From positions 4,821 to 68,820 of the forward strand of contig CALXYB010000008.1 in NCBI GenBank assembly GCA_944392835.1: 64,000 nt of DNA, written 5' to 3'. Origin of the DNA: an uncultured Alphaproteobacteria bacterium (GTDB lineage: Bacteria > Pseudomonadota > Alphaproteobacteria > RF32 > CAG-239). Shown piece by piece: positions 9,674-63,504 of this stretch. Positions within the stretch are counted from its first letter, which is position 1. Each line of letters starts with the position of its first letter. A model generated the notes under the pieces. It was not told the origin of the DNA, did no database searches, and saw only the letters and a program-made list of their open reading frames with translations. The translations under genes were made by a program, and so were the position numbers.

Positions 9674-9676
9674 GGT

Positions 9677-10588
9677 TTAATTAGGATATTTTAGTAATAA
9701 TTCCAAAGCGCGTTGTCGTTCGTCTACGGAGCGGTTTTTCTTTATGCTTTTTTGTATATCTTCCGAACTGCTTTTGAAATATTTTTTATAACCTCGCTCA
9801 TCATAGATTTTATTGATAATATCCTCGTCTCTGAGTTTGGAAACATCATTACCCAATGCTTTATAAATAAGATTAGCAGCTCCATTTCCACCAAATTGTA
9901 CTGCTGTTGAAAAAACACTATCACCAACTACCGGTGAACGTTTGTCAAGATTTAGTCCTTTAATATACTTTATTTTTTCTATTGCAGGATTATAATTATT
10001 CTTAAGCATAAAATTATGTTGTGAATCCAAAAATTTAGAATCTTGCGAAAGTTTTTTCCAAGTTGATTTAAATGCATCTGTACCCGATTTTGCCGCATCA
10101 AAACCGCCTGCTTGTTGAAGTGCATTATAGAAGTCTCGATATTCTTCTTTGTTTTTCATATAATTGAGATAATCTTTCATTGTTCCTGGACCTGTAGCTA
10201 TTTGATAAGTTCCATAGCTGCATCCTCCTGTTCTATCTGCTTTACAATCATTAAAAAGTTTTTTACCGTTCTCAGATTCAGCCGCACCACTTAAAGTTCC
10301 AAGTTTATAAGAGCTTACATCATTTGTTGTATTCGCCTTAGTATTTTGAGCAATTTTATATGAAGCGGCAGTGTTTCCGATTGGTTTGGGTGTTAAATCG
10401 GCTTTTATGTTTGATGGTTCTGCTATTTGAGCTTTGTTTGAGCTTAGCCTCATCCAACCTTTTTCTATCAGGTTTCTTGGATTATACTTATAACCTTCTT
10501 GTTGTTCTCTGAAAGTAGAGTTTTTGTTTTGCTTTTTAAGTTCTTCTTCTGGATCTTCTTGAGCAATATATTGAATTAAATTTGTCAT
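9677..10588 (-). CDS. putative peptidoglycan hydrolase-like protein (GH108-like motif, PG_binding_3-like C-terminus) with conserved N-terminal MTNLIQYIAQEDP tag
   Basis: DRTGGCSYGTYQI resembles the GH108 DPGGxTxYGIT motif. C-terminal SVFSTAVQFGGNGAANLIYKALG resembles PG_binding_3. Start trimmed to ATG 10588 (ORF started at TTG 10618). N-terminus is shared with 34926..35438. Confidence 0.4.
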   Translation of the reverse strand: MTNLIQYIAQEDPEEELKKQNKNSTFREQQEGYKYNPRNLIEKGWMRLSSNKAQIAEPSNIKADLTPKPIGNTAASYKIAQNTKANTTNDVSSYKLGTLSGAAESENGKKLFNDCKADRTGGCSYGTYQIATGPGTMKDYLNYMKNKEEYRDFYNALQQAGGFDAAKSGTDAFKSTWKKLSQDSKFLDSQHNFMLKNNYNPAIEKIKYIKGLNLDKRSPVVGDSVFSTAVQFGGNGAANLIYKALGNDVSKLRDEDIINKIYDERGYKKYFKSSSEDIQKSIKKNRSVDERQRALELLLKYPN

Positions 10589-10622
10589 TTTGTGCCCTTT
10601 CGTTAACAATTTAAACAAAAAA

Positions 10623-10646
10623 ATCCGAAGAACTTAATCTTCGGAT
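10623..10646 (-). other. stem-loop + T-run in the 5' leader of 9677..10588 (attenuator-like or insulating terminator)
   Basis: atccgaagaacttaatcttcggat followed by T-run in minus orientation. Lies 35 nt upstream of the start codon. Confidence 0.4.
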
Positions 10647-10652
10647 TTTGGG

Positions 10653-10735
10653 TACACTTATAGCAAGTGATAATTTTCATATAACAAAAATATATACAAT
10701 TTTCAAGACGCAATAAAACATATCAACAACTTTTA
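10653..10735 (+). promoter_or_regulatory. duplicated promoter/operator block, copy 2
   Basis: Identical 19-bp palindrome-containing motif plus second conserved block. Lies upstream of 10842..11246. Confidence 0.45.
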
Positions 10736-10841
10736 AGAAAGCAAAATATTATTTTGTCAAATTTTGTCTTGACTGAAACATTATTTAGAGGCATAGTAAA
10801 TGAACAAATAACTCTATTATTAATATTAACACTTTGAAAAA

Positions 10842-33160: not shown

Positions 33161-33196
33161 GGCAGCCGTTTCATTGACTGCCATTTTAATTGGTTA
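33161..33196 (+). repeat. terminator hairpin + degenerate island-boundary core (attttaattggtta)
   Basis: ggcagccgtttcattgactgcc hairpin, then a core related to the TTGGTGAT repeats further right. Coincides with the GC-content drop. Confidence 0.35.
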
Positions 33197-33478
33197 TTTT
33201 CTTTTTAAAAGATGAAGTAATATTATAATCAACACTGGTGAAAGTAATAATAATGCATAGAACTCAAGCTCAGAAAGCTCCACTAGATAATTAAGTCCAA
33301 AAACAATTAAAATTGGAGAAAGTCCAAAGACAATCCTTAAAAAATGCCAATCTTCGGTCACTGTATCATGATCACAATCTGTCCAACGATATATCTTAGG
33401 ATAAATATAACATCCATAAATGAAAAGCATTAATCCCAAAACAACCAATAAACTTCCGATTATCTTTACTGTTTCCAT
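33194..33478 (-). CDS. small membrane protein, hypothetical
   Basis: Three TM helices. Confidence 0.35.
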   Translation of the reverse strand: METVKIIGSLLVVLGLMLFIYGCYIYPKIYRWTDCDHDTVTEDWHFLRIVFGLSPILIVFGLNYLVELSELEFYALLLLSPVLIIILLHLLKRK

Positions 33479-33690: not shown

Positions 33691-34011
33691 TTATATATTA
33701 TAAAAGTTGGTAAAATAGACATATCTCGCCAAATAAACAAGAGCCGGTATGGATAGAATGATATAGGCTTTTTTGAGATTTGTTTTACGCTTTTTCCAAG
33801 CATAAACCGTAGGTGCAATTATTATCAACAATATTGTTAATGTCATTATGGTATAGTTAAACCTATTTTCATATGCCCAACCTAATGCCTCTGCATTCCA
33901 TGGCATTTGGTTGCTACTCATTTCTTTTGGATATGTTATGGCATATATAAAAACTAAAAATCCATTTAAGGACAATAAGAGATAAAACAGTATGAGTTTG
34001 ATTTTTTTCAT
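33691..34011 (-). CDS. small membrane protein, tandem paralog 1
   Basis: About 90% nucleotide identity to 34146..34466 over about 320 bp. Confidence 0.4.
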   Translation of the reverse strand: MKKIKLILFYLLLSLNGFLVFIYAITYPKEMSSNQMPWNAEALGWAYENRFNYTIMTLTILLIIIAPTVYAWKKRKTNLKKAYIILSIPALVYLARYVYFTNFYNI

Positions 34012-34145: not shown

Positions 34146-34466
34146 CTATATATTAAAAAAGTTGATAAAATAAATATATTGTATCAGATATAAAAGAGCC
34201 GGGATGGATAGAATTATATAGGCTTTTTTGAGATTTGTTTTACGCTTTTTCCAAGCATAAATCGTAGGTGCAATTATTATCAACAATATTGTTAATGTCA
34301 TTATGGTATAGTTAAACCTATTTTCATATGCCCAACCTAATGCCTCTGCATTCCATGGCATGCTGTCACTTGTCATATCATCTGGATATGTTACTGCAAT
34401 GATAAAAACCGCAAAGGCATATAATCCTGACAATAGATAAAACGGTATGAGTTTGATTTTTTTCAT
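34146..34466 (-). CDS. small membrane protein, tandem paralog 2
   Basis: Start trimmed to MKKIKLIPFYLL. Near-identical C-terminal two-thirds to paralog 1. Confidence 0.4.
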   Translation of the reverse strand: MKKIKLIPFYLLSGLYAFAVFIIAVTYPDDMTSDSMPWNAEALGWAYENRFNYTIMTLTILLIIIAPTIYAWKKRKTNLKKAYIILSIPALLYLIQYIYFINFFNI

Positions 34467-34480
34467 AATTGCACCTTCGG

Positions 34481-34876
34481 TTAAAGCGGAATACATTTTT
34501 GAACTTTATTCCAACTCAAGCAATCATTTCTGCATATGTGTTGGTCATAGTCCCATACCAAGCCATTATCAAGACAAGAATCCAATTGATGTGCTCGCTT
34601 GATATTCGCATTAAATAAAAACATTTGAAGAAAAGCTAAAAAAATGAGCATTACAAAAATATAATGTTTTTGTTTATATCTATTAAACACCCAAAAAATT
34701 AGTCCCCAACACAATGTTGTGATGATTGCCACGTAAGGAATATGCGCCATTGATGCTTCTTCATTTTCCGTAATATAAGCTTCATAAATCAGAAACAAAA
34801 CTATTGGCGTAATCAAAATTCCTTTAACAATTATATGCATTGCTTTAAGAAATAACTCTTTGGTTTGTTTTTTCAT
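34481..34876 (-). CDS. membrane protein, hypothetical
   Basis: TM helices plus C-terminal Cys-containing tail. Overlaps start of paralog 2 (coupled). Confidence 0.4.
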   Translation of the reverse strand: MKKQTKELFLKAMHIIVKGILITPIVLFLIYEAYITENEEASMAHIPYVAIITTLCWGLIFWVFNRYKQKHYIFVMLIFLAFLQMFLFNANIKRAHQLDSCLDNGLVWDYDQHICRNDCLSWNKVQKCIPL

Positions 34877-34925: not shown

Positions 34926-35438
34926 TTATTTGTAGTAATCGCGTGGATTACGAGAGCAACTTTCTAAAAGATTTTTTCCCGATTTTGCTCCCTGCCAACC
35001 TCTACGATTTGCTTCCCAATCATCTGATGATGCTTGAATTCCATCTTTCATTACTCCATACGGAAATTCTCGTGCTGTACTTAAAGTTTTTGCAACAAAT
35101 TCTCCCCATTTTCCCCTTTTAGCGGCTTCATAATTTGCTTTACAATGAAAAAATTTATCATTTCCTATAGTGGCATCTTCTTCCATCTCTTTTTTATTTT
35201 GCACAAAGTCATAAAATGGAGCTAATAACCCCGTTCTTGTTTTTCCTGGATAATTAGATTTATTTTTCTGCATATATTCATTGAGATGAGCCTCTGTCTT
35301 TTTTCCCCAATTTTCAGAAATATTTGATTTTTTTGTTCTATATGTTTCTAAATAATCCTTTTTACTATTTTCAATATTATCAATAGAAAATTTTTTAGAA
35401 GGATCTTCTTGTATAATATATCTTATTAAATTACTCAT
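34926..35438 (-). CDS. serum amyloid A (SAA) domain protein with N-terminal MSNLIRYIIQEDP tag
   Basis: IGNDKFFHCKANYEAAKRGKWGEFVAKTLSTARE and DDWEANRRGWQGAKSG align closely with the vertebrate SAA core ([34 protein letters not shown] ... ADQAANEWGRSG). Start trimmed to ATG 35438 with AAGGA RBS. Confidence 0.65.
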   Translation of the reverse strand: MSNLIRYIIQEDPSKKFSIDNIENSKKDYLETYRTKKSNISENWGKKTEAHLNEYMQKNKSNYPGKTRTGLLAPFYDFVQNKKEMEEDATIGNDKFFHCKANYEAAKRGKWGEFVAKTLSTAREFPYGVMKDGIQASSDDWEANRRGWQGAKSGKNLLESCSRNPRDYYK

Positions 35439-35477
35439 TTCTTTTTCCTTATTCTTTGTTAATTTTAGATACAAAAA

Positions 35478-35524
35478 AACCGTTGATTTTCATCAACGGT
35501 TTTTAGACGCACTTTTCCCAAGTG
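35478..35524 (-). promoter_or_regulatory. leader stem-loop + CACTT-N5-AAGTG palindrome upstream of the SAA-like gene
   Basis: aaccgttgattttcatcaacggtt hairpin with T-run, then cacttttcccaagtg palindrome. Same architecture as upstream of 9677..10588. Confidence 0.4.
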
Positions 35525-36014
35525 ACATTTTATCTTTTATAATATTTTCTATTTAAAGTAAAGGAAAAAATTCCTATCTTGTGGGTAATTATGTTTTATG
35601 TTATTTAAGATGTTCCAAAGAGCTTGCATTTTTGCTTAGCGCTCCCTTCCGGGTTCGAACTTCTATTGTAATTATGATACTTTTTTATAATTTTTACTCT
35701 TTCTTGCTCATAAGCTCAAGCTTTTAGCTTTCGCCAACTCGCTTCGGTCACTCCATTTGTAACGTTTTTCGCCTACACTTCCGTTTGGCTCAAAACCAAC
35801 AAATGTTCGCCTGTCGTTAAAAATTCCTCCACGGGAGAAATTTTTTTCCTCCAGCCCCATACTTTGACGATGAGCCCTTAAATTTCAAAAATAAAAAAAT
35901 TGTTGATTAAAAATAAAAGGAATAAAATAAAAAAGTTCGGACAAATTGAAAAAATGATGATTTTTGAAAAAGAAACATCCGAACTTGATGAAAGCCTTGG
36001 AAATAAAAGAAAAA

Positions 36015-36050
36015 GCAGCCATTCTCATGACTGCCGTTTGAATTGATGAT
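36015..36050 (+). repeat. terminator hairpin + degenerate boundary core (gtttgaattgatgat)
   Basis: Terminates the radical SAM gene in minus orientation. Core is related to the TTGGTGAT repeats. Confidence 0.35.
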
Positions 36051-36091: not shown

Positions 36092-37348
36092 TTAACGTTC
36101 TTTTATTTTATTTTTCATAAAAGTATTAGAAAATTGACAAAATCCACCACATTTTATCCCTTCTGGTGAATTATTGACATCACAATCCTTGCATGCCTCT
36201 TGTGTTTTTAATCGTGAGCGCAATGTATAGTCTAGCTCTTGTAGCAATGCTTCAGGTGTATACTTTTCAATTGGCCCTTTCTTATGCTTACGATCCATAT
36301 GACAAACTAACAGACGACCATTTACATCAATGTTTATTAGTTGACGAATATCACAACCATAATACCTTGATTCTTGTATTTTATCTGCTAAATGGACGGT
36401 GTTGTGAAAAACATGCGGATTATTTTTGTGTTTTTCATAAATGCTCCTCATATCAACATTCTGCAATTCATTATTAGCAGCGGCTCCTGCAATTATTGTT
36501 GGACGGATAAATAAATTTATTTCAAATGGTTTTAAATATTCAACTAATCTATCAATACCAGGTTCATTATCTTGATTGACTGTACATAACAAAGAACAAT
36601 TTATGCCATTTTCTTTTAATATCTTAATTCCTTCTATATCTTTTGCAAAAAGTCCTGGTCTTTTTCTACTTTTGTCATGTAATTCCCCGTATGAGTCAAT
36701 ACTTATAATTATATCACTTGAACTTTTTAATGAATTAATAGTTTTTTTATCTAATGAAGACAAATACTCTCCGTTAGTTACAATTGTATATAAAAAATTT
36801 TCTTTATTAACAAAATCACAAAGTTCAGATAGATCTTTTCTAAGCAAAGGCTCACCACCTAAAATTTCGAGTCTAGTTATTCCTAATTTTTTTAAGTGCT
36901 TGATTCTTTTTTTCAAAGTATCCAGAGAAGGCGGAGGTGTTGGAATTTCTGCTTTATAACAAATATCGCAATTACACTGGCAAGCATCTGTAATTTCAAT
37001 TCTGCCATAATAAGGCAAGTCATTATTCAAACAGTGAACTTTCTTAAAAGAATTGGGATGATTAGTTTGTTCTATTAGTTCATGACTGAGTAACTTCTGA
37101 ACTATAGATTTAGGCATTCCATTCAGATTAAAAATCGGTTGTTGAAGAATTTCTACCATTTCATTATCCAGAAACAAAACACTATTTATTGTTTTTCCTG
37201 ATATAGCCAACGTTCCATTAGGAGATATTCTGAGTAAGCTATTCTTCATAATAGAGTACGTTTCTGTGCCTATATAAACAGAGGTATCTTCTTTAATAAA
37301 CTCTTTTTTACATGGAACAGCTCGACTGTATAAATTTGTTACTTGCAT
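36092..37348 (-). CDS. radical SAM enzyme with C-terminal SPASM/twitch domain (peptide- or protein-modifying maturase-like)
   Basis: CQCNCDIC (CxxxCxxC). C-terminal Cys cluster CHMD...CKDCD...CGGFC. About 130-aa N-terminal extension, possibly substrate recognition. Start trimmed to ATG 37348 with AGGGG RBS. Confidence 0.75.
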   Translation of the reverse strand: MQVTNLYSRAVPCKKEFIKEDTSVYIGTETYSIMKNSLLRISPNGTLAISGKTINSVLFLDNEMVEILQQPIFNLNGMPKSIVQKLLSHELIEQTNHPNSFKKVHCLNNDLPYYGRIEITDACQCNCDICYKAEIPTPPPSLDTLKKRIKHLKKLGITRLEILGGEPLLRKDLSELCDFVNKENFLYTIVTNGEYLSSLDKKTINSLKSSSDIIISIDSYGELHDKSRKRPGLFAKDIEGIKILKENGINCSLLCTVNQDNEPGIDRLVEYLKPFEINLFIRPTIIAGAAANNELQNVDMRSIYEKHKNNPHVFHNTVHLADKIQESRYYGCDIRQLINIDVNGRLLVCHMDRKHKKGPIEKYTPEALLQELDYTLRSRLKTQEACKDCDVNNSPEGIKCGGFCQFSNTFMKNKIKER

Positions 37349-42323: not shown

Positions 42324-43331
42324 ATGTACGACGGATCAATTTCAAACTATAATAAAATAGAAGAGGATGCCTCCTACCATGAAATTATATCTTTTGAAGA
42401 TGAAAAGGACATTCGCAAACGATATTTAGACGAGCTTGCAAAAAATAAAGATAATTCACAGAAAATATCCGTTCTAAATGTAGCATTGATTAACTATTTT
42501 ATTAAAAAAGATAGATTTGATTTAGCTAAAGATGTGTTAAAAAAACAAACCTCCTTTTGCACAGAAGAACTTATAACATTGTTCGCATCTAAAATTGATG
42601 TAGAAATTCTGAGCAAAACAGACGTAGATTTTATCAATGAAGTTTTAAAATATTTATCGCACATTAAAACGAATAATAACGGACATCATGTAATTCACGA
42701 TTTAAAAGAAAAGATCAAAAAAATTAAAGAGAAAATCAAACAAGAATCAAAGAAAAAAAATGATAAGTATAAAAACAAAGAAACAAAATTATCTACCTCA
42801 TCTCAAAAAAAAGAAAATTTAACAGTAAGTCAGAATAAAGCCGAATCTCCTGAAGAGGCAATATCTTTCTTATCAAAATATATCAGCGAACAGAAACAAA
42901 ATATAAAAACCTTGAATGAAGAAAAACAGCTCATATTATCCCAAGTTAATACTTCTCAGAGAAAATTAGATGATTTAACAAAACAGTTACATACGGTAAT
43001 TCAAGAGAAAAAAGCAAAATCTTTTGAATTAGAAGATATTGAACAAAAATATAATAAGTTGAAAAAAGAAAATGATACTTACAAAATAAAAACACAAAGA
43101 AATGAAGAAGAGTTAGGCAAGAAAATTGAAAGCCTATCAAATAGTATCGATATTCTTAAAGAGAGTCATAAAATTGAAATACAATCTCTAAAAATCAATA
43201 TAAGAAATAAATTGAAAATAAGATATGATGATTTTTTAGATAAAAAAGATGAATTATCAAATAATCAATTGAAAATTTTAATTGCCAATATTTTTGCAGA
43301 CTTAGAATATCTTGGCATTAAATTCAAATAG
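42324..43331 (+). CDS. coiled-coil protein, hypothetical
   Basis: K/E-rich heptad-like C-terminal half. Stop overlaps next gene. Confidence 0.45.
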   Translation: MYDGSISNYNKIEEDASYHEIISFEDEKDIRKRYLDELAKNKDNSQKISVLNVALINYFIKKDRFDLAKDVLKKQTSFCTEELITLFASKIDVEILSKTDVDFINEVLKYLSHIKTNNNGHHVIHDLKEKIKKIKEKIKQESKKKNDKYKNKETKLSTSSQKKENLTVSQNKAESPEEAISFLSKYISEQKQNIKTLNEEKQLILSQVNTSQRKLDDLTKQLHTVIQEKKAKSFELEDIEQKYNKLKKENDTYKIKTQRNEEELGKKIESLSNSIDILKESHKIEIQSLKINIRNKLKIRYDDFLDKKDELSNNQLKILIANIFADLEYLGIKFK

Positions 43332-44748
43332 GAGATTAATTATGGGCTTCTGTGGTATTGATTTTGGAACAACAAATACAGCTATGGTCTATTTTTCAGA
43401 ACACACAGGAATGATATTTGTAGGGGATGAAGAAGAAAATTTACCTTTACCATCTATAGTTGCGTTAAACAAACATACTGGCGAAATCATTGTTGGAAGT
43501 GATGTAAAAAGAAATATACAGAAATATACTAGAGATTATGAAATAGTTTTATCAATTAAGACTGTTTTGGATGATCCTAAACAGGAATGGAATGTTGCTG
43601 GTCGAACATTAAAGCCTGTAGATATAGCCGCAGAAATTTTTAAAACTCTTAAAAACAATGCAACTAAAAGAAAAATAGATATATCAAAAATTGTAATTTC
43701 GGTCCCTATTAATTTTTCATCTGGAAAAAAAATATGCCTTCGAGAAGCTGCCAAAAAAGCCGGATTGGACATCAAAAAATTTGTAAATGAACCTACCGCA
43801 GCATTTTTAGCTCATTATGAGGAGTTAAAATCATTTTCTAAAACAGTTATTTTTGATTGGGGAGGCGGAACTTTAGATATATCTGCATTAGATATTAAAA
43901 ATGGTACTATTAGAGAAATATACACAGATAACATGTATAAAGCGGGAGATAATATAGATAAAGACCTGGCCCGTAGTATTTATGAAAAATCCATAAAAAA
44001 ATATGGTTTGTCGCTTATTCCTTTTGATAAAATAGAAGCCGACGAATATGATGAATTAATCGCAAAAGCAGAATTAGCAAAAATTTACTTATCAAAAGAT
44101 AACCAGAATCGATATGATGATTTTTGCAAAATACAAGGTAAAATACGAGATATTACCGTAACATACGAAGATTTATGTAATATTTCTGAAAATATAGTCA
44201 ATGAAGCTATAAGCAAATTAAATCATGTAATAAGTAAAGCATATAATGAACGAGTGCATTGCATTTTATGTGTAGGAGGCTCCTCAAATCTAAGAAACCT
44301 TAAAGAAAAATTGAGAAAAATTTATGGTGATATCCTGTATTTTCCTGATTTTCCACAATGGGATATAGCAAATGGTGCTTGTATTATAGATGCCTCAAAT
44401 AGAAATAATGTCTATAAACTGGCTTACGATATTAATCTAATTTTATCAAATGGAGATAAATATCCTCTTTTAAAAGAAGGTCAACTCATTCCTTGCAAAG
44501 AATCAAAAATACATTTATCGACTGTTGATTGCTCAGAAAATGCAAATTTTGTATTTCAATTTGGTCAAGATGAATATCATGAAATAACAATTCCTCTTCT
44601 AGGTGGAGTTGATGAGACTTTTGATTTATTCACATATATTGATAACTATTCTGTCTTGCATATAGATATGAAGAATAACAAAATTCAAGAAGATGAAAGA
44701 TACAATATATTTCGATATGAAAAACTAGATTTATGTTACAACGTGTAA
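43312..44748 (+). CDS. Hsp70 (DnaK)-family actin-fold ATPase, stand-alone
   Basis: GIDFGTTNTAMV phosphate-1. DWGGGTLDIS phosphate-2. NEPTAAF connect motif. 478 aa with no DnaK substrate-binding-domain signature. Confidence 0.7.
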   Translation: MALNSNRRLIMGFCGIDFGTTNTAMVYFSEHTGMIFVGDEEENLPLPSIVALNKHTGEIIVGSDVKRNIQKYTRDYEIVLSIKTVLDDPKQEWNVAGRTLKPVDIAAEIFKTLKNNATKRKIDISKIVISVPINFSSGKKICLREAAKKAGLDIKKFVNEPTAAFLAHYEELKSFSKTVIFDWGGGTLDISALDIKNGTIREIYTDNMYKAGDNIDKDLARSIYEKSIKKYGLSLIPFDKIEADEYDELIAKAELAKIYLSKDNQNRYDDFCKIQGKIRDITVTYEDLCNISENIVNEAISKLNHVISKAYNERVHCILCVGGSSNLRNLKEKLRKIYGDILYFPDFPQWDIANGACIIDASNRNNVYKLAYDINLILSNGDKYPLLKEGQLIPCKESKIHLSTVDCSENANFVFQFGQDEYHEITIPLLGGVDETFDLFTYIDNYSVLHIDMKNNKIQEDERYNIFRYEKLDLCYNV

Positions 44749-44757
44749 GGATAAAAA

Positions 44758-45486
44758 ATGTTATCTATAAATTCCAATATCCAGTACAAAAGTAATGTTT
44801 ATATTGTTTCTAGCTCATATAGTCCTTATGATGATTCATCTTTCATTCATCAAGTATATGATGCAAAGAAGTTGAACGAAATAATAAAAAAATCTCGTTT
44901 TGGAGATGTATTGTTGACAAAAGTACAAAGATATATTTTAGAGAAAGATGTAGTTTGTGTTTATGCAAAAAAATTTCTAAAAAGTGAAACAGCGCAATAT
45001 TTCGTTCTGACAAAACACAATGAAGAGAAATGTAAATGCCAAATTGTTGATTGTCCTTTATTTGAGCAATGCCGTCCAAATGAAAAGATTAAAGCTAAAA
45101 CAGAGCAAGAGAGATTTAATAACTTAAGTATTGCTGAGAAAATTGATAATACCCATTATTATCCTATTATGCTAAATTTTGACAGAGTAATTGAGAGATG
45201 TAGCGATAATGCTTTTGACATTATATCTGATATAGATATGACGCAATATCAATATAATGATAATGTGACCTTTTCATATGTTGGAGATGGAAATGGTGCA
45301 AATTGGGACAACTGGGTCGGAGGAAGTGAAGAAAGGTATTTTAGCTCAGAAAAAAAGACAAAAAACATCCCTGTAGTAGATTTAACTTCTGATGTTCAAG
45401 CCTCTAATAACCCTATGTTAGAATACCAAAAAAGACACTTAAATCTAGATAATGAGTTTTTTAAGAAAATAAATAAAACCCCATAA
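44758..45486 (+). CDS. hypothetical protein (third gene of Hsp70-like operon)
   Basis: 10-nt gap from upstream gene. Hairpin terminator overlaps stop (45478-45500). Confidence 0.4.
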   Translation: MLSINSNIQYKSNVYIVSSSYSPYDDSSFIHQVYDAKKLNEIIKKSRFGDVLLTKVQRYILEKDVVCVYAKKFLKSETAQYFVLTKHNEEKCKCQIVDCPLFEQCRPNEKIKAKTEQERFNNLSIAEKIDNTHYYPIMLNFDRVIERCSDNAFDIISDIDMTQYQYNDNVTFSYVGDGNGANWDNWVGGSEERYFSSEKKTKNIPVVDLTSDVQASNNPMLEYQKRHLNLDNEFFKKINKTP

Positions 45487-51885: not shown

Positions 51886-54744
51886 ATGAAAAAAAATTTA
51901 CTCATAACAACCGCATTAGTTGCCGTTCTAAGTACAACTAGCGCTTATGCGGAATCACTCCCGAGTGATGCGTCAAATTTAACAACAGGTAAATATGTTG
52001 TTGAAGATACTGGTCAGGAAAATATCCATAACGGAAATATCAAACTCTCGGAAGAGGCTTCTTTAGAAGTAAATACCTATGTCGATATCGATGCCGAGCA
52101 GGATAAGGTCACCGATACAAGCCATATTTTTAACGTACAAGGAAATTTGGAAGTCGGCGATGCTACTAATGGCGGCGGTAGTTTATCGGTAAAACGCGAT
52201 GATGACAAAAAGCCGTTTATGAGCGTCAACGGGAATCTGACTGTCAATAACGGCGCCTCTGTTGATATGTCCAGCAACAGTGACTATTTCTCAACTATAA
52301 CTGTTAGCGAAAATGCCGATATTAAAGGCGGCAATGTTAAGATGAATAATGCTGAAATCTTTGTCAGAAAGGGTTTGAGCATTACCGGAGGCAACCTTGA
52401 ATTACAGAACAACGGTGGTTTGTATTTGCCGGAAGAGACTTCCAGTAATGTGACTATCAGCGGCGGCAAAATCACGATGAACGGCAACACGGAAATAGAC
52501 ACTTCCAAAGGCGATATTACCATCAGTGGCGGTGAAATTAATTTGAAAGATGCCAGTTCTATTAAAACCCGTGGCGGCAATATTAATATTTCAGATGGGA
52601 CGATTACCACTTCATATACCGGTAACGGAGACGGAGAAGTTATGTCTCTTATTGCCAACGGAAACGTTGAAATCAGTGGTGGAACGGTTAATTTGAATTC
52701 AACAACCATGGCTGCATTTGGCGGAAAAATGAATATTACCGGCGGAAATATTACATTAAAAGGAACTTCAACCAATGAGGCGTCTTTATGGTCTGCGGCC
52801 GGTGATTTAGATATTTCCGGAGCTGATACCGTTATCAATATGCAAGGCCATGCGGATATGGATAGCATTGATGACCGCCTTAATGTTGGAACACATACGA
52901 AAAATAATATTAATATTACAGATGCAACTATTAATATTTCCGGTACGGAAAACGAAATCGGCGCCGAAGGCTCTATTAATTTGAATAATGCAACATTGAA
53001 TGTTGCCGATGCCGGGGAGGTTTTGGTTTCAAATTCGGCTGATAAGAAACAAGGAACATTAAACCTTAATGGCGGTCTGATTAACTTAGGCGGTACAATT
53101 AATGGTAACGTTAATGGAAATGGCAATCTCTGTTTCAGAAACGCTGCCGCTACTGTCAGCGGTAACGTCTCCGGTTCTAATCTGGCTTTTGAGACTGACC
53201 ATTCTTTAAGTAAGGCGGTTTCAGGTACAATCGGCGATTTGGCTTCTCTGAGTGTTAATAAAGGCACATTGACCTATGATAAGCAAACCGGTACAATCGG
53301 TAATTTGAATGTTGCCGGCGGTTTGGATATTGGTACAAATACCGTCAATGCAACAGCCGTTGATTTTAAAGATAATTCAAAACTAGCCCTGCGTGTAGCT
53401 GCGGCTGATAATTACGGTAAAATCAATGCTGACAATATTACCATCGGCGATAAAACAACAATGAATGTCACTTTGGATAATGGTGTCGTTGGTAACGGTA
53501 AAACTTCTGAATTTAAATTCTTAAACGGTACGGTTAATGGTGATTTTACAAATAAAATTGCTGAAAATAACCGTTATGCGATTGAATGGACAGAGGATGG
53601 TTCTTTGAATATTACCGGAACAGCGACGGCATCTGATGTTGTTAATGAAGCCGGTGGTTCTACGAATAATGCCAAAACAGCGGAGGCCTGGGACAGTTTG
53701 ACATCTTCATCAACGGCAAGTGCCGGAGCTAAAGCAGTTGCTTCGGTTCTGAATGATTTATCGCAGAATAATGAACAGGCTTATGTTGAGGCTTTGACCG
53801 CGGTGGCTCCTGAAGTTGCACCGATGGTTCAAAAAACACAGACTGAAACGGCTAATCAGGTATTCGGGGCTGTATCAACTCGTTTAACCGGTGGTTCGGT
53901 TTCAACCGGCGGCGAGGGTATGTCTTCCGGCGATAACATTTTTGAACGCGCAGCGATGTGGGTTCAGGGCTTGTTTAATCATTCCAAACTTGATGATACG
54001 TCCAAAGCCAAAGGTTTTGATGCCGATACCAACGGTATTGCTTTCGGTTTTGAGAAGTTTGTGACCGATGATGTTAAAGCCGGTATCGGTTATGCTTACA
54101 GTAATACTGATATTGACGGCTTTAAGCGTGATACAGATGTTGATACTCATACCGCTATTTTGTATGGTGAATACAAACCGTCAAATTGGTATGTAAATGG
54201 TATTGCGACTTATGGTTGGTCTGATTATGACGAAAGCAAGAACGTTGCCGGTATCAAAGTTAATGCTGACTATGATGTTGAAACGTTTGGTTTGCAGGCG
54301 ATGACCGGTTATGATATGAACATTAAAGGTATCAATGTTACGCCGGAAACCGGTTTGCGCTATGTCCATATTAAGCAGGATGCTTATAAAGACTCTGCTG
54401 ACCAGCGCGTATCTGCCAATGACAGCGATATTTTGACCGGTGTTATCGGTGCCAAAGTCAGCAAGTCTTGGGAATTGTCTAATGGTATGACTGTCAAACC
54501 GGAAGCCCGCATTGCCGCGACTTATGACCTGTTTAACGATGATGTTAATTCGGTTGTTACGTTGGCGAATGGTTCGGCTTATACCGTTGATGGTGAAGCT
54601 CTTGACCGTTTCGGAATGGAATTTGGGGCTGGTGTAACTGCGGAAGTCAACGATAATGTCGAACTCTCGCTTGGTTATGAAGGCAAATTCCGTGAGGACT
54701 ACCAAGACCATACCGGATTGATTAATGCTAAATATAAGTTTTAA
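51886..54744 (+). CDS. autotransporter (type Va) with repetitive Gly/Asn-rich passenger and C-terminal beta-barrel
   Basis: Signal peptide. Passenger with repeated GGNI/ISGG beta-helix-like motifs. C-terminal domain ending ...NAKYKF, typical of autotransporter barrels. Confidence 0.75.
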   Translation: MKKNLLITTALVAVLSTTSAYAESLPSDASNLTTGKYVVEDTGQENIHNGNIKLSEEASLEVNTYVDIDAEQDKVTDTSHIFNVQGNLEVGDATNGGGSLSVKRDDDKKPFMSVNGNLTVNNGASVDMSSNSDYFSTITVSENADIKGGNVKMNNAEIFVRKGLSITGGNLELQNNGGLYLPEETSSNVTISGGKITMNGNTEIDTSKGDITISGGEINLKDASSIKTRGGNINISDGTITTSYTGNGDGEVMSLIANGNVEISGGTVNLNSTTMAAFGGKMNITGGNITLKGTSTNEASLWSAAGDLDISGADTVINMQGHADMDSIDDRLNVGTHTKNNINITDATINISGTENEIGAEGSINLNNATLNVADAGEVLVSNSADKKQGTLNLNGGLINLGGTINGNVNGNGNLCFRNAAATVSGNVSGSNLAFETDHSLSKAVSGTIGDLASLSVNKGTLTYDKQTGTIGNLNVAGGLDIGTNTVNATAVDFKDNSKLALRVAAADNYGKINADNITIGDKTTMNVTLDNGVVGNGKTSEFKFLNGTVNGDFTNKIAENNRYAIEWTEDGSLNITGTATASDVVNEAGGSTNNAKTAEAWDSLTSSSTASAGAKAVASVLNDLSQNNEQAYVEALTAVAPEVAPMVQKTQTETANQVFGAVSTRLTGGSVSTGGEGMSSGDNIFERAAMWVQGLFNHSKLDDTSKAKGFDADTNGIAFGFEKFVTDDVKAGIGYAYSNTDIDGFKRDTDVDTHTAILYGEYKPSNWYVNGIATYGWSDYDESKNVAGIKVNADYDVETFGLQAMTGYDMNIKGINVTPETGLRYVHIKQDAYKDSADQRVSANDSDILTGVIGAKVSKSWELSNGMTVKPEARIAATYDLFNDDVNSVVTLANGSAYTVDGEALDRFGMEFGAGVTAEVNDNVELSLGYEGKFREDYQDHTGLINAKYKF

Positions 54745-56314: not shown

Positions 56315-56860
56315 ATGATTTTTAACTATATCCGTGTTTCAACTACCGACCAAAACACCGAACGACAACTTTTAGATATTCCGTGCGACCGAGCTTATAT
56401 TGAAAAAATCAGCGGCAAAAATACCGACCGCCCTGAATTACAGGCTATGTTATTAAATATTCGTTCCGGCGACATTTTAAATATTCACGAAATGAGTCGT
56501 TTGGCTCGTAATACTCGGGATTTGCTGAACCTTGTAGAGGAAATTACAGCCAAAGGAGCGACTATAGTCTTTTATAAAGAAAATTTGACCTTCAAAGGCG
56601 ATGGAAAGCAAGACCCTTATCAGAAAATGATGATGACGATGTTAGGAGCCGTTGCGGAGCTTGAACGTAATTTAATCCTTGAACGCCAACGAGAGGGTAT
56701 AGCTCTTGCCAAACTTCACGGCAAATATAAAGGCGGTCAGCCTAAACTAACCGCCCAACAAGTCGAAGAAATAAAAGCCCTTGTTAATAATCGCACACCA
56801 ATAACGCAAATTGCCAGACAATATAACATCAGCCGTCGTACTGTATATAACTACCTATGA
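56315..56860 (+). CDS. small serine recombinase (resolvase/invertase family)
   Basis: IRVSTTDQ catalytic Ser motif. C-terminal HTH. 181 aa. Confidence 0.8.
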   Translation: MIFNYIRVSTTDQNTERQLLDIPCDRAYIEKISGKNTDRPELQAMLLNIRSGDILNIHEMSRLARNTRDLLNLVEEITAKGATIVFYKENLTFKGDGKQDPYQKMMMTMLGAVAELERNLILERQREGIALAKLHGKYKGGQPKLTAQQVEEIKALVNNRTPITQIARQYNISRRTVYNYL

Positions 56861-56897
56861 AAAAAGGCGGTCAACCCATAAGCCAACCACCCAACAA

Positions 56898-57650
56898 TTA
56901 ATTCCCATTTTTAATGTCGCTAATAATATTGCGTAAAATTTCTTTTCCTTTTCCCCCTGCAAAAGCTAAATCATATATTCTAAAACGTTTGAGATGAATA
57001 AAGTTAGCATAAACAGCCTTGTACGTCATATTGGTGTTTTTGAGGCCAATCGTTAAATTTCTCCTCATAAATGTTCTTTTTCCGCCAAATAATGCTTTGA
57101 AACTGTACTGTATTGCAGATTCTAAATCATATTGAGGTCTGACGACAAAGGGCCTAATTCTACTTTGAGGGAAGTATTTTTTTATACGTTTCGATAGTTT
57201 CCCTTTTTCCCATCTAGTTAAAGTTCTGAAAAAAATTCCGTGAATATGTGGTGTCATCAGAGTACCATCTTGCTGGAATGATATCCGAGGAAATTCATCT
57301 AAAGCAACATTAGCGATATAATCATATCCTTTAAAAATCTTTTTTATTTTCTTTTGAAATGACTTGTGTTGGAAATTCCAATTATCCTGCCCAAAATTAT
57401 ATTTATCGACAACAACAGTAAACATAGAGATATTGTTATTACCGATAACTGGTTCCAAGTATGAATAAGCAACATCTGAAAAGTTTTTGAGAGCTAGAGG
57501 TTGCATCATTCCAAATCCAGTTCGACTATTAACATACCTTATTAATCGGCTCTTTACATAAACATCTTTAACATACAAATCAATTGCTCTTGTCACTTTT
57601 CTGAGTTGCAAATTTGCATTTTGTTCAAATCTTTCTGAAAAAGTTTTCAT
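56898..57650 (-). CDS. HUH-type replication-initiator / relaxase-like protein
   Basis: PHIHGIFF (HUH motif). Downstream Tyr-containing YKAVYANF. Confidence 0.4.
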   Translation of the reverse strand: MKTFSERFEQNANLQLRKVTRAIDLYVKDVYVKSRLIRYVNSRTGFGMMQPLALKNFSDVAYSYLEPVIGNNNISMFTVVVDKYNFGQDNWNFQHKSFQKKIKKIFKGYDYIANVALDEFPRISFQQDGTLMTPHIHGIFFRTLTRWEKGKLSKRIKKYFPQSRIRPFVVRPQYDLESAIQYSFKALFGGKRTFMRRNLTIGLKNTNMTYKAVYANFIHLKRFRIYDLAFAGGKGKEILRNIISDIKNGN

Positions 57651-57792
57651 TTTAATTTATTCCTTAATTGACTGATTTAACTGCATTATGTTTAAAATAT
57701 GGTTGTATACATACATTTGCAGTTTTCGCAAAAACGTTGTAATACAACGTTTTTCAAAAAAAGGGGAACAGTTTAAATTGTCCCCCTTTCTA

Positions 57793-58512
57793 TTATTGTA
57801 ATTTAAAAAACTCGAAATCATCCAGCTTTTTAATTAAAGCAACATCTGTGCTTTTGAATGCTTCACCCTCTGTAACCCAGATGACGTAACTTTCATCTTC
57901 AATTTTATTATTTTTCAAAAAGTTAACGATTTTAGTGCTCAAATAAGGTTTGGCTGAATTAGATGAAGAGGCTTTATGATTTTCTTCTGTATCATCATCA
58001 CTTTCATCGTCATCATCTTCGTCAAGGTCATCATTCTCTTCAGATGTTTCATTGCTAAAGTCAAATTCCAATTGGTTTTCATTATTCTCTTCTTCCTCTT
58101 CTTCAGATTGCTCTTTTGAACGAGGATTGGCAAAATAATCAATCCCAAATTTTTTCAACTCTTCGTTAGCTCTTTTAACATCATATTGAAGCTCATCAAA
58201 GTGTTTCAAGACTCTAACATAAGTTCTGATTCTTGCTTTTATGTGTTCATCATCACAGTCACTTGAAACGTTCATGGCTAACATTAATACCATTTTCATT
58301 GGTTTTGAAGCTGAGTATTTAATATTTGCCTTTTTACATCGCTTTTTAATGACTTTCTCGTTGTAATGAAGACAAACGTCATAACACCCAATGATGGCCT
58401 GGCGTATGTGTTTACGTCCTTTTAACTCAAATTTTCCAAAAGATGCGAAATCTTTTTTTGCTATGTTGAGTTTTTCAACGATTTCGTCTTTATTATAAGA
58501 TTCAAGAAACAT
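57793..58512 (-). CDS. acidic (D/E-rich) hypothetical protein
   Basis: Long Asp/Glu run in centre. Overlaps next ORF start. Confidence 0.35.
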   Translation of the reverse strand: MFLESYNKDEIVEKLNIAKKDFASFGKFELKGRKHIRQAIIGCYDVCLHYNEKVIKKRCKKANIKYSASKPMKMVLMLAMNVSSDCDDEHIKARIRTYVRVLKHFDELQYDVKRANEELKKFGIDYFANPRSKEQSEEEEEENNENQLEFDFSNETSEENDDLDEDDDDESDDDTEENHKASSSNSAKPYLSTKIVNFLKNNKIEDESYVIWVTEGEAFKSTDVALIKKLDDFEFFKLQ

Positions 58513-58816
58513 TTTGTATTTCCTTTATTTCTTTGTCTGCATAATAAAGAGTGAGAAAAAGTTTCAATAACTGCTCATAAATAGCCAAAGCCTCATCATC
58601 AGATAAAACTTCATTTGGATACCATGATTTAATTACATCTTCTTTTCTCATAGCTTCACAATTTAGACAAAATTGATACACAGCCAATTGGCTGGAAAGA
58701 CAATTCATTTGCCTTACAATATGAACAATAGCGTAAACATCGTTAGTTTGGAAATTGTTAGTTTCTAAGGGTTTTGTGTGATTGATAGAAACATCCAACG
58801 ATATTGTAACAATCAT
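58502..58816 (-). CDS. hypothetical protein
   Basis: 104-aa ORF coupled to downstream gene. Confidence 0.3.
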   Translation of the reverse strand: MIVTISLDVSINHTKPLETNNFQTNDVYAIVHIVRQMNCLSSQLAVYQFCLNCEAMRKEDVIKSWYPNEVLSDDEALAIYEQLLKLFLTLYYADKEIKEIQNVS

Positions 58817-58906
58817 TAGAAAAAGCTAACAATCGTTATTGGAAACAAATAAATTGCTTGTTTTGTCTAAAATCACATAATATTATTATTTTTAACAATT
58901 GGAGAT

Positions 58907-60436
58907 TTGAAAATGATAAAAAATGCAGTTTTATTAAGGCGAGTATCGACCGTTATGCAGGAGCGTGATGGTAATTCACTTCAAAATCAATCAGAAATGC
59001 TAACTCAATACTGTGAACGAAAAGAGATGACTATCATTAAAGACGCAGAAATAGTCGAGAGCAGTACCAGAGGCGAACGTAAAAAATTTATGGAAGTCAT
59101 AAAGTTCTGCCAACAACAACGCGGTGGTGTTGCTTTAGTATGTTTGAAGACTGACAGACTGTTTCGAAACTTCAAGAATTATACATTGATTGATGAAATG
59201 CGAAAAAGCGGACAGCTTGAGCTTCACCTGATTCAAGAAAACTTAGTGTTAAATAAAGATTCCAAAGCCGGTGACTTAACCATACTCGGTTTAAATGTCG
59301 TTATGGCTCAAAACTATGCTCTTAGCTTACGAGATAATGTGGTTTACGGTATGGATTATTCTGTCAATCAAGGACGGTGTATGTCGAAAGCTCCAGCAGG
59401 CTATTTAAATATAAGAACACCGGACGGAAAAGCCGCTGTAATTATTGACAATGAACGAGCTCCAATTATTCAGAAACTTTTTGAAGAATACGCAACAGGG
59501 CTTTATTCGGTTAAGGACATGATGAAAAAATGCAAAGAATGGGGGCTTGTCAGTCGGTTTTCCGGTAAACCGTTTGATACAAGCACAATTCACCGCATAT
59601 TAAATAACAAATTCTACATTGGGGAAATGCTGTATAAAGACCAATGGCACAAGCACAATTACGAAACATTGATTGCACCTGCTTTGTTCAAAACTTGTCA
59701 GGATATTATGCACGGTCGCAAACCAGAAGAACCTAAACATTTCAAAACCACCGAAAAGCCCTTTATCTTTCGAGGACTGATAACTTGTGGAGAATGCGGT
59801 TGTATGGTTAGTAGCTACCGCAAAACGAAACCTAGCGGTAGAGAATATGTTTATCTGAAATGTTCGCATTTCAAGGGAAACTGTAACAATCCGCAAGTTA
59901 ATGAAAACGTTGTTTTACAACAAATTGAAGACGAATTGAAAAACTTGTCCGTACCGCAAGAGATAATGGGCTATCTTAAAGCTGATATGGAGAAAATCAT
60001 AAATCGACAGAATGAAGCCCATAACCGTGAAGTCAAAGCCATTCGCAAGAAATACGATGACTGTCAGGATAAAATTAAACGTCTGCGGTCATTACTGCTT
60101 GAGGGATATATTACACCGGAAGAATACCGTGACATGAATGAAGACCTTAAAAATGAGCAGTACGAACTAGAGGGGAAATCAGAATTGTTGACAGAAGCTG
60201 ATGAAAAGTTTTCAATCGCAGTCGCGACAATACTTTCCTTGGGCAATAATGCGTATAAAATCTTTCAGAGTTCGAAAGTAGAAACAAAAAGAGAGATTTT
60301 GCACATCTTACTTTCGAACTTGAAATTGCAAGACCGTAAAATCTCTTATACCTTTAGAAAACCTTACGATTACATCAAGTCTTTAAATAAAAAAATACCC
60401 TCAAAAACTGAGGGTATCGCAATTGGTGATGCTTAA
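58907..60436 (+). CDS. large serine recombinase
   Basis: N-terminal resolvase domain (RRVSTVMQ), recombinase domain, Cys zinc ribbon (CGECGC...C...C) and coiled-coil. Last five codons lie inside the 22-bp direct repeat. Confidence 0.85.
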   Translation: MKMIKNAVLLRRVSTVMQERDGNSLQNQSEMLTQYCERKEMTIIKDAEIVESSTRGERKKFMEVIKFCQQQRGGVALVCLKTDRLFRNFKNYTLIDEMRKSGQLELHLIQENLVLNKDSKAGDLTILGLNVVMAQNYALSLRDNVVYGMDYSVNQGRCMSKAPAGYLNIRTPDGKAAVIIDNERAPIIQKLFEEYATGLYSVKDMMKKCKEWGLVSRFSGKPFDTSTIHRILNNKFYIGEMLYKDQWHKHNYETLIAPALFKTCQDIMHGRKPEEPKHFKTTEKPFIFRGLITCGECGCMVSSYRKTKPSGREYVYLKCSHFKGNCNNPQVNENVVLQQIEDELKNLSVPQEIMGYLKADMEKIINRQNEAHNREVKAIRKKYDDCQDKIKRLRSLLLEGYITPEEYRDMNEDLKNEQYELEGKSELLTEADEKFSIAVATILSLGNNAYKIFQSSKVETKREILHILLSNLKLQDRKISYTFRKPYDYIKSLNKKIPSKTEGIAIGDA

Positions 60437-60454
60437 CTCACGGTTTCCGAGCTA
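60421..60454 (+). repeat. direct repeat, right copy
   Basis: Identical 22-mer to 47102..47123. Overlaps the large serine recombinase stop codon. Confidence 0.8.
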
Positions 60455-60530
60455 AAAGTAATAAATCAAATAATATATTTGTTGCTAAACAATTTTATTA
60501 ACAATAGTATGATAATAAATTAAATACTGA

Positions 60531-61811
60531 TTGAGGTTGTTTATGTGTAATGAATGTTTAGTTTATCCGGCATTACAAAAATTTTATAATGCTCTGGACA
60601 TCATTGATAAAATTGATTGCAAAAAATATATATTTGAAACAATTCCTCAGCTTGATGCTTTTTTCTCAGAAATGAGAAATATTACATTTGTCTTACAAAA
60701 AAGCTTTAATACTCCTGAACTAAAAATAGATTATGAACAAATTAGAGATAAATTCTTTAACAATAGTACTATGAATTGGTTCAAAAATACTAGAAATGAA
60801 ATATCAAAACAACATCCATTCAAACTGGAAAAGGCCTTAGAAATAGAATATTATCTACCAAATTTTTCTATAAAAGCAACAAACTCTAGGCTAACGATAG
60901 ACAACGATTATAACTTTCTCGATCTATACCAAAGTTTAAAAAACTTTTTAGATACTCATTATTCGAATAGCGTTGAAGTTTTTTTAAGTACAAACATAAC
61001 ATTTTTAGAAAATGGAGAAGAAGTTAATGTTTATTCCATAATTCGAGATGGAATAGATATAATGAATTCCTTTATACAGGAGCTCATCTCTAAATATCCC
61101 TGTAATTGTGTCAAATGTATGAGATTACAAAATTCAATTAAATCTCTCATTGAGAATATAAACATTAAACAATTAACATTTTCCTCAGATTTATATTATG
61201 CCGATAAAGAATTATCTATTGGAAGTGAAATTTATACTTTCTTAGATCCGAAACATTCTCTATTGACTCCTGCAATGCCATTAAAAAACAGCATTTGGGA
61301 TATGAACAACTCACTAAATTGCGACTTGAATTTGTTAAGAGTTTTTTCTTATCACCATATAGTTCTTGCACGAATACAGAGAACCCAATCTTCAGATAGT
61401 GAGCTAATGCCCGTATTTTTAATAATCTATAAAAATAATACATACTCATTTTATGGTCCAATTACTGGTACAAATAAATCCACATTTTACAGAGCTATTA
61501 GCAATATTTGTAAGATTATTACAAATAATCAAGTTAAAGCTGTTTTAATGCTTTCAGAAGCGTACTTCTATAAAGATAAAGATTTAACTAAATTACAAAA
61601 TATGAAATATAAAGATAGAATAAAAGAAGCTTCTGGGGTTAATATATTATTTTCACTGGTTTCAAAACAAATGAAAAAAATATGTAATATAACAATAGAT
61701 TATGAAAATCTGTTTAATGATGAGTACATATATAAAAACATTAAAGACATTGAAATGTGTAATCCTGAAGACCATACAGCATATCCTATTTTTCAAGCCC
61801 TACATTCATAA
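60531..61811 (+). CDS. hypothetical protein (very AT-rich cargo between two large serine recombinase genes)
   Basis: 426-aa ORF. No recognisable domain. N/I/K-rich composition distinct from backbone. Confidence 0.4.
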   Translation: MRLFMCNECLVYPALQKFYNALDIIDKIDCKKYIFETIPQLDAFFSEMRNITFVLQKSFNTPELKIDYEQIRDKFFNNSTMNWFKNTRNEISKQHPFKLEKALEIEYYLPNFSIKATNSRLTIDNDYNFLDLYQSLKNFLDTHYSNSVEVFLSTNITFLENGEEVNVYSIIRDGIDIMNSFIQELISKYPCNCVKCMRLQNSIKSLIENINIKQLTFSSDLYYADKELSIGSEIYTFLDPKHSLLTPAMPLKNSIWDMNNSLNCDLNLLRVFSYHHIVLARIQRTQSSDSELMPVFLIIYKNNTYSFYGPITGTNKSTFYRAISNICKIITNNQVKAVLMLSEAYFYKDKDLTKLQNMKYKDRIKEASGVNILFSLVSKQMKKICNITIDYENLFNDEYIYKNIKDIEMCNPEDHTAYPIFQALHS

Positions 61812-63404: not shown

Positions 63405-63504
63405 TTTTAACTACTCCATTGATTTAACACAATATTATTATGTCGCGTTAATTTGGGAATGTACGCAAAAAAATGCACTTTTAGGCAACTTTTTTACTAA
63501 TATT

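Follow-up and report, generated by a model that had tools for sequence, protein, structure and literature searches.

What does an uncultured bacterium, probably living in the gut, do with a protein that resembles the serum amyloid A (SAA) of vertebrates? The question is raised by the open reading frame (ORF) 34926..35438 of a 64,000-nucleotide stretch of the alphaproteobacterial contig CALXYB010000008.1, hereafter the window, to which all coordinates refer unless a related locus is named (handles beginning with L for such loci and with P for proteins). Using a combination of methods (profile searches, structure modelling, covariance models and comparison of related loci), we found that this gene is a further member of the published prok-SAA/Imm-SAA kind of toxin-immunity pair. 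We consider it probable that it forms the toxin half of an interbacterial toxin-immunity module of an uncultured, probably gut-dwelling alphaproteobacterium, and we refer to its product below as the SAA toxin.

The SAA toxin matches the Pfam family SAA (PF00277) with 59.8 bits (gathering cutoff 30.8; E = 3.8e-16), its residues 76-153 aligning with positions 12-90 of the 102-position profile, and the same family is present in 52 of 54 homologs. A phmmer search of the PDB sequences matched it to human SAA1 (4ip9/4ip8; E ~7e-9), in an alignment covering the motifs FH.K/R.NY.AAKRG and ..AN..G; NCBIfam returned no match. The AlphaFold2 model, computed with 38 homologs (pLDDT 81.8, pTM 0.81), shows helices at residues 73-88, 93-106, 110-132 and 134-152, plus short C-terminal helices, and fits the SAA fold, taken as a helical bundle with a four-helix core and a short fifth helix or tail. 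Foldseek ranks mouse SAA3 and human SAA1 first among its PDB matches (target-normalised TM-score 0.62-0.74; root-mean-square deviation 2.0-3.0 Å; probability 1.00; identity 27-35%), with modest E-values of 6e-3 to 2e-2. Because the profile, PDB-sequence and fold matches agree, the similarity is one of homology and not of composition; a compositional artefact is ruled out, and the genuine SAA domain that an earlier note had proposed for this ORF is confirmed by a model that superposes on both mouse and human SAA. A Pfam match to Imm26 (E = 0.004, under the cutoff) overlaps the helical SAA core and was taken as spurious.

The earlier note regarded SAA domains as rare in bacteria, as eukaryote-like and as possible acquisitions from a eukaryotic host, views that neither the published record nor our own comparison supports. 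A prok-SAA family has been defined within the Lipocone superfamily, where it shares one clade with Wnt (Burroughs, Nicastro & Aravind, eLife 2025, PMC12419801), and the contextual data of that study tally it at 195 loci in many phyla, with free-living and predatory lineages included. The sequence set of the same study holds an ortholog, CDB53504.1, whose domain is 76% identical to that of the SAA toxin, and its authors argue that metazoan SAA was acquired from bacteria (PMC12419801). In a crude neighbour-joining tree (~100 aligned positions, 15 sequences), the four metazoan SAAs make up a clade of their own, and the SAA toxin stands with the sequences from bacteria; its identity is 32% to human SAA1, as compared to 45-76% to its nearest bacterial relatives. 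Besides lying outside the metazoan clade, the protein has no signal peptide, as had been claimed: its N-terminus MSNLIRYIIQEDPSKK, read by eye and not with a predictor, shows neither a positively charged n-region followed by a hydrophobic stretch, nor a lipobox, nor a twin arginine. Identical or near-identical copies of the gene occur in metagenome-assembled genomes (MAGs) labelled uncultured Alphaproteobacteria, one of them labelled uncultured proteobacterium, and more distant copies in 'Candidatus Scatocola faecigallinarum' and other MAGs, the related contigs being mostly from human gut metagenomes.

Prok-SAA domains are described as the toxin tips of polymorphic toxin systems, matched by immunity proteins of the membrane or periplasm, and the active Lipocone members are predicted to cut or swap phosphate-linked lipid head groups (PMC12419801). 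In the SAA toxin, the residues F97, H98, C99, Y103, R108, G109, E124, D140 and G147 are invariant across the 38 homologs, and N144 and C161 are kept in at least 90% of them. The published active site has a His in helix H2, a Glu in H3 and an Asp in H4, to which H98, E124 and D140 correspond; N144 corresponds to the Asn found four residues past this Asp, and G147 to the Gly that caps the helix. C161, the conserved partner of C99, lies just downstream of the Pfam match, and the pair is absent from vertebrate SAA; its conservation suggests a disulfide bridge, and the toxin may accordingly act in an oxidising compartment.

The SAA toxin does not stand alone. At every orthologous locus examined, it is followed by a homolog of the same small membrane protein, whatever genes surround the two, and in the window this protein starts 49 nt past the toxin stop codon. 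The published immunity architecture 'TM+[TM+TM+]Imm-SAA' comprises one or three transmembrane (TM) helices ahead of a domain made of one helix and four strands, in which four cysteines are conserved, and the window protein corresponds to the listed form 'TM+TM+TM+Imm-SAA' (PMC12419801). In its model, three long helices are accompanied by a helix at residues 89-103 and four short strands. None of the four C-terminal cysteines varies among eight homologs, and the C-terminal motif AH..D.C.D.G.VWDY...H.CR.DC..W.....C also follows the distant SAA toxins of L019 and L021. A subgroup (L005, L006 and L018) has a shorter immunity tail with two cysteines. Judging from the charges that flank the three predicted helices, the C-terminal domain is probably periplasmic. 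The pairing of the two genes is shown by their conserved linkage, and the protein is predicted to protect the cell that makes the toxin.

Like the published prok-SAA/Imm-SAA systems, the window pair has the Pfam family, the fold, the His/Glu/Asp and N..G positions and the toxin-then-immunity gene order. It differs from them in that the SAA toxin has no PAAR, RHS, MuF, peptidoglycan-binding or broken-hairpin fusion, and carries instead a 13-residue N-terminal tag behind a conserved, terminator-containing leader. With vertebrate SAA1 and SAA3 (PDB 4ip8, 6pxz), the toxin shares the superposable four-helix core and the motifs FH..NY.AAKRG and AN..G, but the animal proteins possess a signal peptide, circulate on high-density lipoprotein (HDL), and lack the extra N-terminal helix, the tag, the C99/C161 pair and the immunity partner. 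TelC of Streptococcus intermedius, a lipid II phosphatase of the type VII secretion system (T7SS) paired with the immunity protein TipC, belongs to the same superfamily; it is the only Lipocone member with a demonstrated toxin activity, which is extracytoplasmic, directed at lipid II and neutralised by an extracytoplasmic immunity protein (PMC12419801). TelC differs from the SAA toxin by its Lipocone clade, its LXG/T7SS delivery domain, its Gram-positive source and an unrelated immunity fold.

The tag, too, is confirmed. The earlier note had seen it on one other putative effector, and the 303-residue ORF 9677..10588 indeed begins with MTNLIQYIAQEDP. A 30-column profile of the tagged N-termini, run as an exhaustive HMM search over 1.84 billion representatives, retrieved 58 cluster representatives (E <= 1e-3), almost all of them matched at residue 1, and a word-indexed search with the profile returned gene fragments only. 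A degenerate DNA pattern of the tag was matched 65 times in 54 metagenome loci, most of them labelled human gut. Each of these matches opens an ORF, and some of the tagged genes stand in arrays of two or three. The invariance of the tag in this DNA sample is partly imposed by the pattern itself, and the profile search gives the same picture. Since the invariant residues are each written with two to four synonymous codons, and conservation collapses past residue 16, the alignments indicate that selection acts on the tag peptide.

Behind the tag, the tips vary. Those assigned by Pfam are three SAA subtypes, VgrG3-C-like and GH108 domains, with a borderline SLT tip on P0112 (20.9 bits vs a cutoff of 21.3); T4-lysozyme-like, glycine-zipper and unknown tips were read from the sequence by eye only. 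Many tagged toxins (P0064-P0117) show further motifs in the polar linker, namely 'NLLEN.F' and, just before the tip, 'PKPIGN..ASYKIAQN.KGN'. They may serve for processing or recognition, and the 170-residue SAA toxin has neither. Longer constant parts were found in other lineages. An N-terminal module of ~85 residues heads the SLT, the Tlde1 plus peptidoglycan-binding and the SAA toxins of L019 (6737-11092), being complete on two of these genes and partial on the third, and one of ~100 residues heads an SAA toxin and an unknown-tip toxin in L018 (6479-10720). These long modules match no Pfam family, and a multi-transmembrane protein follows each L019 toxin and, in L018, the SAA toxin. This is the organisation of polymorphic toxins, and in the window lineage no more than 13 residues make up its constant part. 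The supplementary files of PMC12419801, to which the search was confined, contain neither of the tag strings NLIRYIIQ and NLIQYI. What may be new is a polymorphic toxin family built on such a tag as its constant module, together with the leader that goes with it, the literature consulted on either reaching no further than that paper.

Essentially every tagged gene is preceded by this leader. Next to a promoter-like region, it begins with a hairpin 1 (CACUU-N5-AAGUG), from which an A-rich linker leads to a terminator-type hairpin with a U7 run, the latter being separated from the ATG by ~30 nt that include the Shine-Dalgarno sequence (AAGGA in the case of the SAA toxin, which begins with ATG). 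A TTG start at 35474 was discarded, as the ORF would then cross the terminator and the Shine-Dalgarno sequence, and all orthologs begin with M-x-N-L-I. A terminator scan placed the terminator-type hairpin of the SAA toxin leader at 35475..35504, and the folding z-score of this leader is -4.25. Across the orthologous loci, 92% of the cells in the leader hairpins are paired, as compared to 35-48% in slid controls, and the three compensatory pairs fall in the terminator stem. The covariance model R1, built from seven leader copies, gives 96.8 bits at the SAA toxin leader and also matches upstream of tagged genes outside its training set, GH108 and glycine-zipper toxins included. It detected 72 further sites in the metagenome loci; 56 of them are immediately followed by an ORF whose tag matches strictly, the remainder consists largely of variant tags and of copies cut off at a contig end, and four weak matches (E 0.006-0.013) are few-base misalignments at tagged genes. 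One copy precedes an untagged Tlde1-like toxin in L001, and a weaker, leader-like match (46 bits) precedes an untagged pair of small ORFs in L008. A weak leader-like match (E = 0.7) was also seen ahead of the first L019 toxin. No Rfam family matched the leader at gathering level, and the E-value mode gave only weak, sub-gathering and unrelated matches.

The neighbour upstream of the second tagged gene is divergent, and the leader hairpin is therefore not the terminator of another gene. We infer that the leader is a promoter-proximal attenuator, which would keep the toxins off until read-through is induced, and that it is more likely controlled by a protein than built as a riboswitch, since no alternative antiterminator pairing is evident. 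The orthologous loci possess near-consensus -35 boxes (TTGACT/TTGACA) and, at or near the equivalent place, the palindrome AGGAAT-N4-ATTCCT (L002, L005, L006 and L012), which may be the operator of a dimeric regulator. A simple promoter scan made no call on the minus strand at 35531..35575. No such palindrome stands out ahead of the VgrG3-C-like gene, the promoter of which must lie in the 253-nt gap that precedes the divergent gene starting at 10842.

From these data, we propose the following mechanism. The C-terminal 100 residues of the SAA toxin form a prok-SAA domain, with its predicted catalytic positions intact, that by analogy with TelC, the one characterised Lipocone toxin, most likely cuts the phosphate-linked head group off a polyprenyl or another envelope lipid (lipid II and undecaprenyl-PP-linked intermediates being the candidate substrates) at the outer face of the inner membrane of the target cell. 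The Imm-SAA protein of 131 residues, through a putatively disulfide-stabilised periplasmic mini-domain, would protect the producer at the same location. The first 13 residues would be a peptide signal common to the whole toxin family, and since the tips identified are mostly cell-wall-directed, this signal most likely serves a common delivery step, which could be the loading onto an export machine, or a receptor/TonB-type uptake as in the case of colicin M and pesticin. The terminator hairpin of the leader would hold the tagged genes off until read-through. It is also possible, though less likely than not, that the tag is an undescribed delivery signal (an export loading peptide or a TonB/Tol-box-like import signal), the leader being an undescribed attenuator RNA, and that the two define a self-contained, co-regulated polymorphic-toxin arsenal of uncultured human-gut Alphaproteobacteria in which the SAA toxin is one cassette.

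Several points weigh against the proposed toxin-immunity module. The family motif sNxxGR reads ANRRGW in the window clade, its last Arg being replaced by Trp. The lipid-head-group reaction has been shown for TelC and PTDSS only and is predicted for the SAA family (PMC12419801), to which we would extend it by homology to these two enzymes and from that published prediction. The immunity model is of moderate confidence (pLDDT 70, 8 sequences). Furthermore, we found no genes of type VI (T6SS) or type IV (T4SS) secretion systems, no type I (T1SS) partner, and no MuF or lysis genes among the scanned window genes; no secretion, adaptor or lysis genes within 10 kb of the orthologs; and no secretion families among the 20 most recurrent neighbour clusters of ~70 related loci. 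A pooled scan of 102 further neighbour proteins likewise gave no secretion family among the 25 most frequent of 132 families, and a literature search on the secretion systems of RF32-type gut Alphaproteobacteria gave nothing usable. An ABC transporter that recurs near tagged arrays was considered as a T1SS and rejected, as it lacks a C39 domain and an HlyD/TolC partner and is surrounded by housekeeping genes; it recurs because a single locus is conserved.

How the SAA toxin would reach its target has two answers that we find about equally plausible, neither of them more than possible when taken alone. It may be a cargo effector of a T6SS, docked to the spike or an adaptor by its tag, an idea to which we give limited credence. 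Prok-SAA tips are published in T6SS and PAAR contexts (PMC12419801), the VgrG3-C and Tlde1 domains of the co-tagged or co-located toxins owe their names to T6SS effectors, and the common module is N-terminal and free of a Sec signal. Yet neither the window nor the recurrent neighbours of the related loci yielded a VgrG, PAAR, Hcp or adaptor gene, and Pfam recognises none of the known T6SS markers in the tag. More generally, the SAA toxin, the scanned window genes and the related loci show no T6SS linkage and no PAAR, MIX, FIX or RIX marker, and no PAAR/VgrG, RHS or MuF-type hallmark is fused to the toxin or found in the window and neighbour genes scanned, such a hallmark being common in the prok-SAA family and not required for membership. 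In colicin M and pesticin, a short motif conserved at residues 2-13 goes together with a low-complexity polar linker and a toxin that acts in the periplasm on lipid II or peptidoglycan, and an immunity protein is anchored in the inner membrane. Their layout, including the absence of a signal peptide and an immunity protein anchored in the inner membrane and facing the periplasm, is comparable to that of the window pair; this is a resemblance, and the toxin folds are unrelated. The SAA toxin might accordingly be a bacteriocin of this kind, released without a dedicated secretion machine, its tag serving as a TonB/Tol box for import through the outer membrane of the target and its polar spacer for translocation and receptor binding; we hold this for rather doubtful. 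The tagged genes do stand alone among housekeeping genes, and in L008 a spanin/lysis-like ORF pair follows the toxin-immunity pair behind the leader-like element. On the other hand, the tag is not a recognisable TonB box, departing from the enterobacterial consensus [DE]-T-x-x-V (a consensus that does not come from these genomes), 170 residues leave little room for a receptor-binding domain, of which none was identified, and AlphaFold models the tag as a helix, with low confidence. The L008 pair itself (10806-11241) consists of a 68-residue ORF with an N-terminal TM helix overlapping a 79-residue lipoprotein-like ORF (lipobox LSSC); it resembles the phage spanin Rz/Rz1 and could be a release or lysis module.

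Two further readings would take the gene out of interbacterial conflict altogether. That it is a vertebrate SAA gene, acquired and secreted as a mimic directed at the host (through retinol or HDL binding, or host receptors), is highly improbable, despite a real SAA fold, a 32-35% identity to human SAA1 and an organism that lives in the human or animal gut. The bacterial clade stands apart from metazoan SAA, and the published transfer runs from bacteria to animals; the gene is tightly linked to an immunity gene; its tag and leader are common to muramidases and transglycosylases, enzymes for which animal cells offer no target; and the protein keeps its catalytic positions and lacks a signal peptide. 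By the refuting condition that the earlier note itself had set, a domain widespread in free-living relatives, the mimicry reading fails, free-living lineages being among the 195 loci. The earlier note, which spoke of an effector or a mimicry factor, was right on an effector-type protein, and its host mimicry is not supported, given the immunity gene and a tag and leader held in common with peptidoglycan hydrolases. It is just as improbable that the SAA protein and its membrane partner are housekeeping enzymes processing the envelope lipid carriers of their own producer. Such a role would agree with the housekeeping functions of other Lipocone families in lipid and peptidoglycan metabolism (PMC12419801), but the pair is patchily distributed and changes its place from genome to genome, often lying beside tRNA genes, pseudogenised copies occur, the 5' module is common to lytic enzymes, and there is no export signal though the predicted substrate faces the periplasm. 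The features of the proposed interbacterial toxin-immunity module are collected in Table 1.

Table 1. Toxin, immunity and regulatory features located in the window
Feature	Position	Strand	Basis or remark
SAA toxin gene (tag, ~60-residue spacer, prok-SAA/Lipocone domain)	34926..35438	minus	intact ORF, 170 residues
N-terminal tag, 13 codons, MSNLIRYIIQEDP, consensus M-x-N-L-I-[QR]-Y-I-x-Q-[ED]-D-P	35400..35438	minus	common with ORF 9677..10588
SAA/Lipocone core, residues 76-153, with H98, E124, D140, N144, G147 and C99	34980..35213	minus	Pfam match
Conserved 5' leader (~90 nt)	35436..35529	minus	alignment with the second tagged gene and the orthologous loci
AT-rich promoter-like region with palindrome AGGAATTTTTTCCT at 35562..35575	35531..35575	minus	read from sequence; putative promoter/operator
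Cognate immunity gene, 131 residues, three TM helices and a C-terminal four-cysteine mini-domain (Imm-SAA type)	34481..34876	minus	conserved linkage
Putative orphan immunity-type gene, 106-residue membrane protein 'PWNAEALGWAYENRFNYT'	34146..34466	minus	81% identical to 33691..34011
Second putative orphan immunity-type paralog, 106 residues	33691..34011	minus	74% identical to L001:1106-1423
Second tagged toxin, 303 residues: tag MTNLIQYIAQEDP, polar linker, VgrG3-C-like peptidoglycan hydrolase domain	9677..10588	minus	Pfam PF21277, E = 8.6e-35
Second leader copy	10586..10674	minus	covariance model R1, 83 bits; terminator hairpin 10620..10649
Candidate immunity gene for the VgrG3-C-like toxin, 159 residues, N-terminal membrane anchor	9194..9673	plus	convergent, 3 nt from the toxin stop

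The interest of the SAA domain itself is limited, the window gene being one more gut-alphaproteobacterial member of a family catalogued in 2025, and supporting the view that animal SAA descended from bacterial envelope toxins (PMC12419801). As a compact pair (a 170-residue toxin and a 131-residue immunity protein, without large delivery domains), it suits the first biochemistry of an SAA-family enzyme. Of more use may be the wider pattern: the short tag and the terminator-containing leader, common to many cassettes with different tips, provide a simple handle on the toxin repertoire of uncultured gut bacteria, and the tag/leader pattern raises the question of how toxins without a known secretion signal are delivered.

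The second tagged toxin also has a candidate partner. The 159-residue ORF 9194..9673 belongs to no Pfam family, and its position beside the VgrG3-C-like toxin is conserved in 4/4 contigs with that toxin, which makes it a candidate for the immunity role. Downstream of the SAA toxin-immunity pair, the two 106-residue membrane proteins of Table 1 are related to L001:1106-1423, the gene that directly follows an untagged YkuD/Tlde1-like toxin of the L,D-transpeptidase type (L001:314-1042) in a sister MAG. No Tlde1/YkuD-type toxin was seen in the window, where no direct search for one was made and the leader model found no further copy; both genes therefore look like orphan immunity genes. Orphan immunity genes are a usual feature of toxin islands. 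The 94-residue membrane ORF 33194..33478 (minus strand) may be another one.

The toxin-immunity cassette appears to be mobile. The pair occurs in differing housekeeping contexts, several of which adjoin tRNA genes; in L005, L006, L008 and L012, it lies 400-500 nt downstream of a tRNA-Leu (GAG) or a tRNA-Thr (CGT), located at ~9445-9830. ARAGORN detected no tRNA or tmRNA near the window copy. Some copies are inactivated, with a frameshift within the tag codons in L004 (~9984)/P0001, and an in-frame stop in place of the Trp of its relatives in the tagged SAA gene of L021 (10073-10540), which suggests an ongoing gain and loss of the cassette. The protein P0041, which joins a cadherin-like domain to an SAA C-terminus, is probably a chimeric or misassembled fragment and was not used.

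Other genes of the window deserve a brief mention. Upstream of the SAA toxin lies a radical-SAM enzyme (Radical_SAM + Fer4_12; 36092..37348, minus strand). Its association with the toxin, as in a possible system for ribosomally synthesised and post-translationally modified peptides (RiPP), was rejected: the enzyme gene has its own terminator (36014..36035) and the toxin its own leader. The region between the two (35640..35880) looks more GC-rich than its surroundings and holds only a 50-residue ORF. A block on the plus strand (42324..45486) encodes a 335-residue protein of no family, a 468-residue truncated Hsp70/actin-like ATPase and a 242-residue protein of no family, and may be a defence or mobile-element module. 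An autotransporter of 952 residues is encoded at 51886..54744 (plus strand; Autotransporter beta-domain, E = 1.7e-54). Lastly, the four ORFs at 56315..63993 have N-termini that read as serine recombinases/resolvases, which suggests that a mobile element is integrated at the right end of the window.

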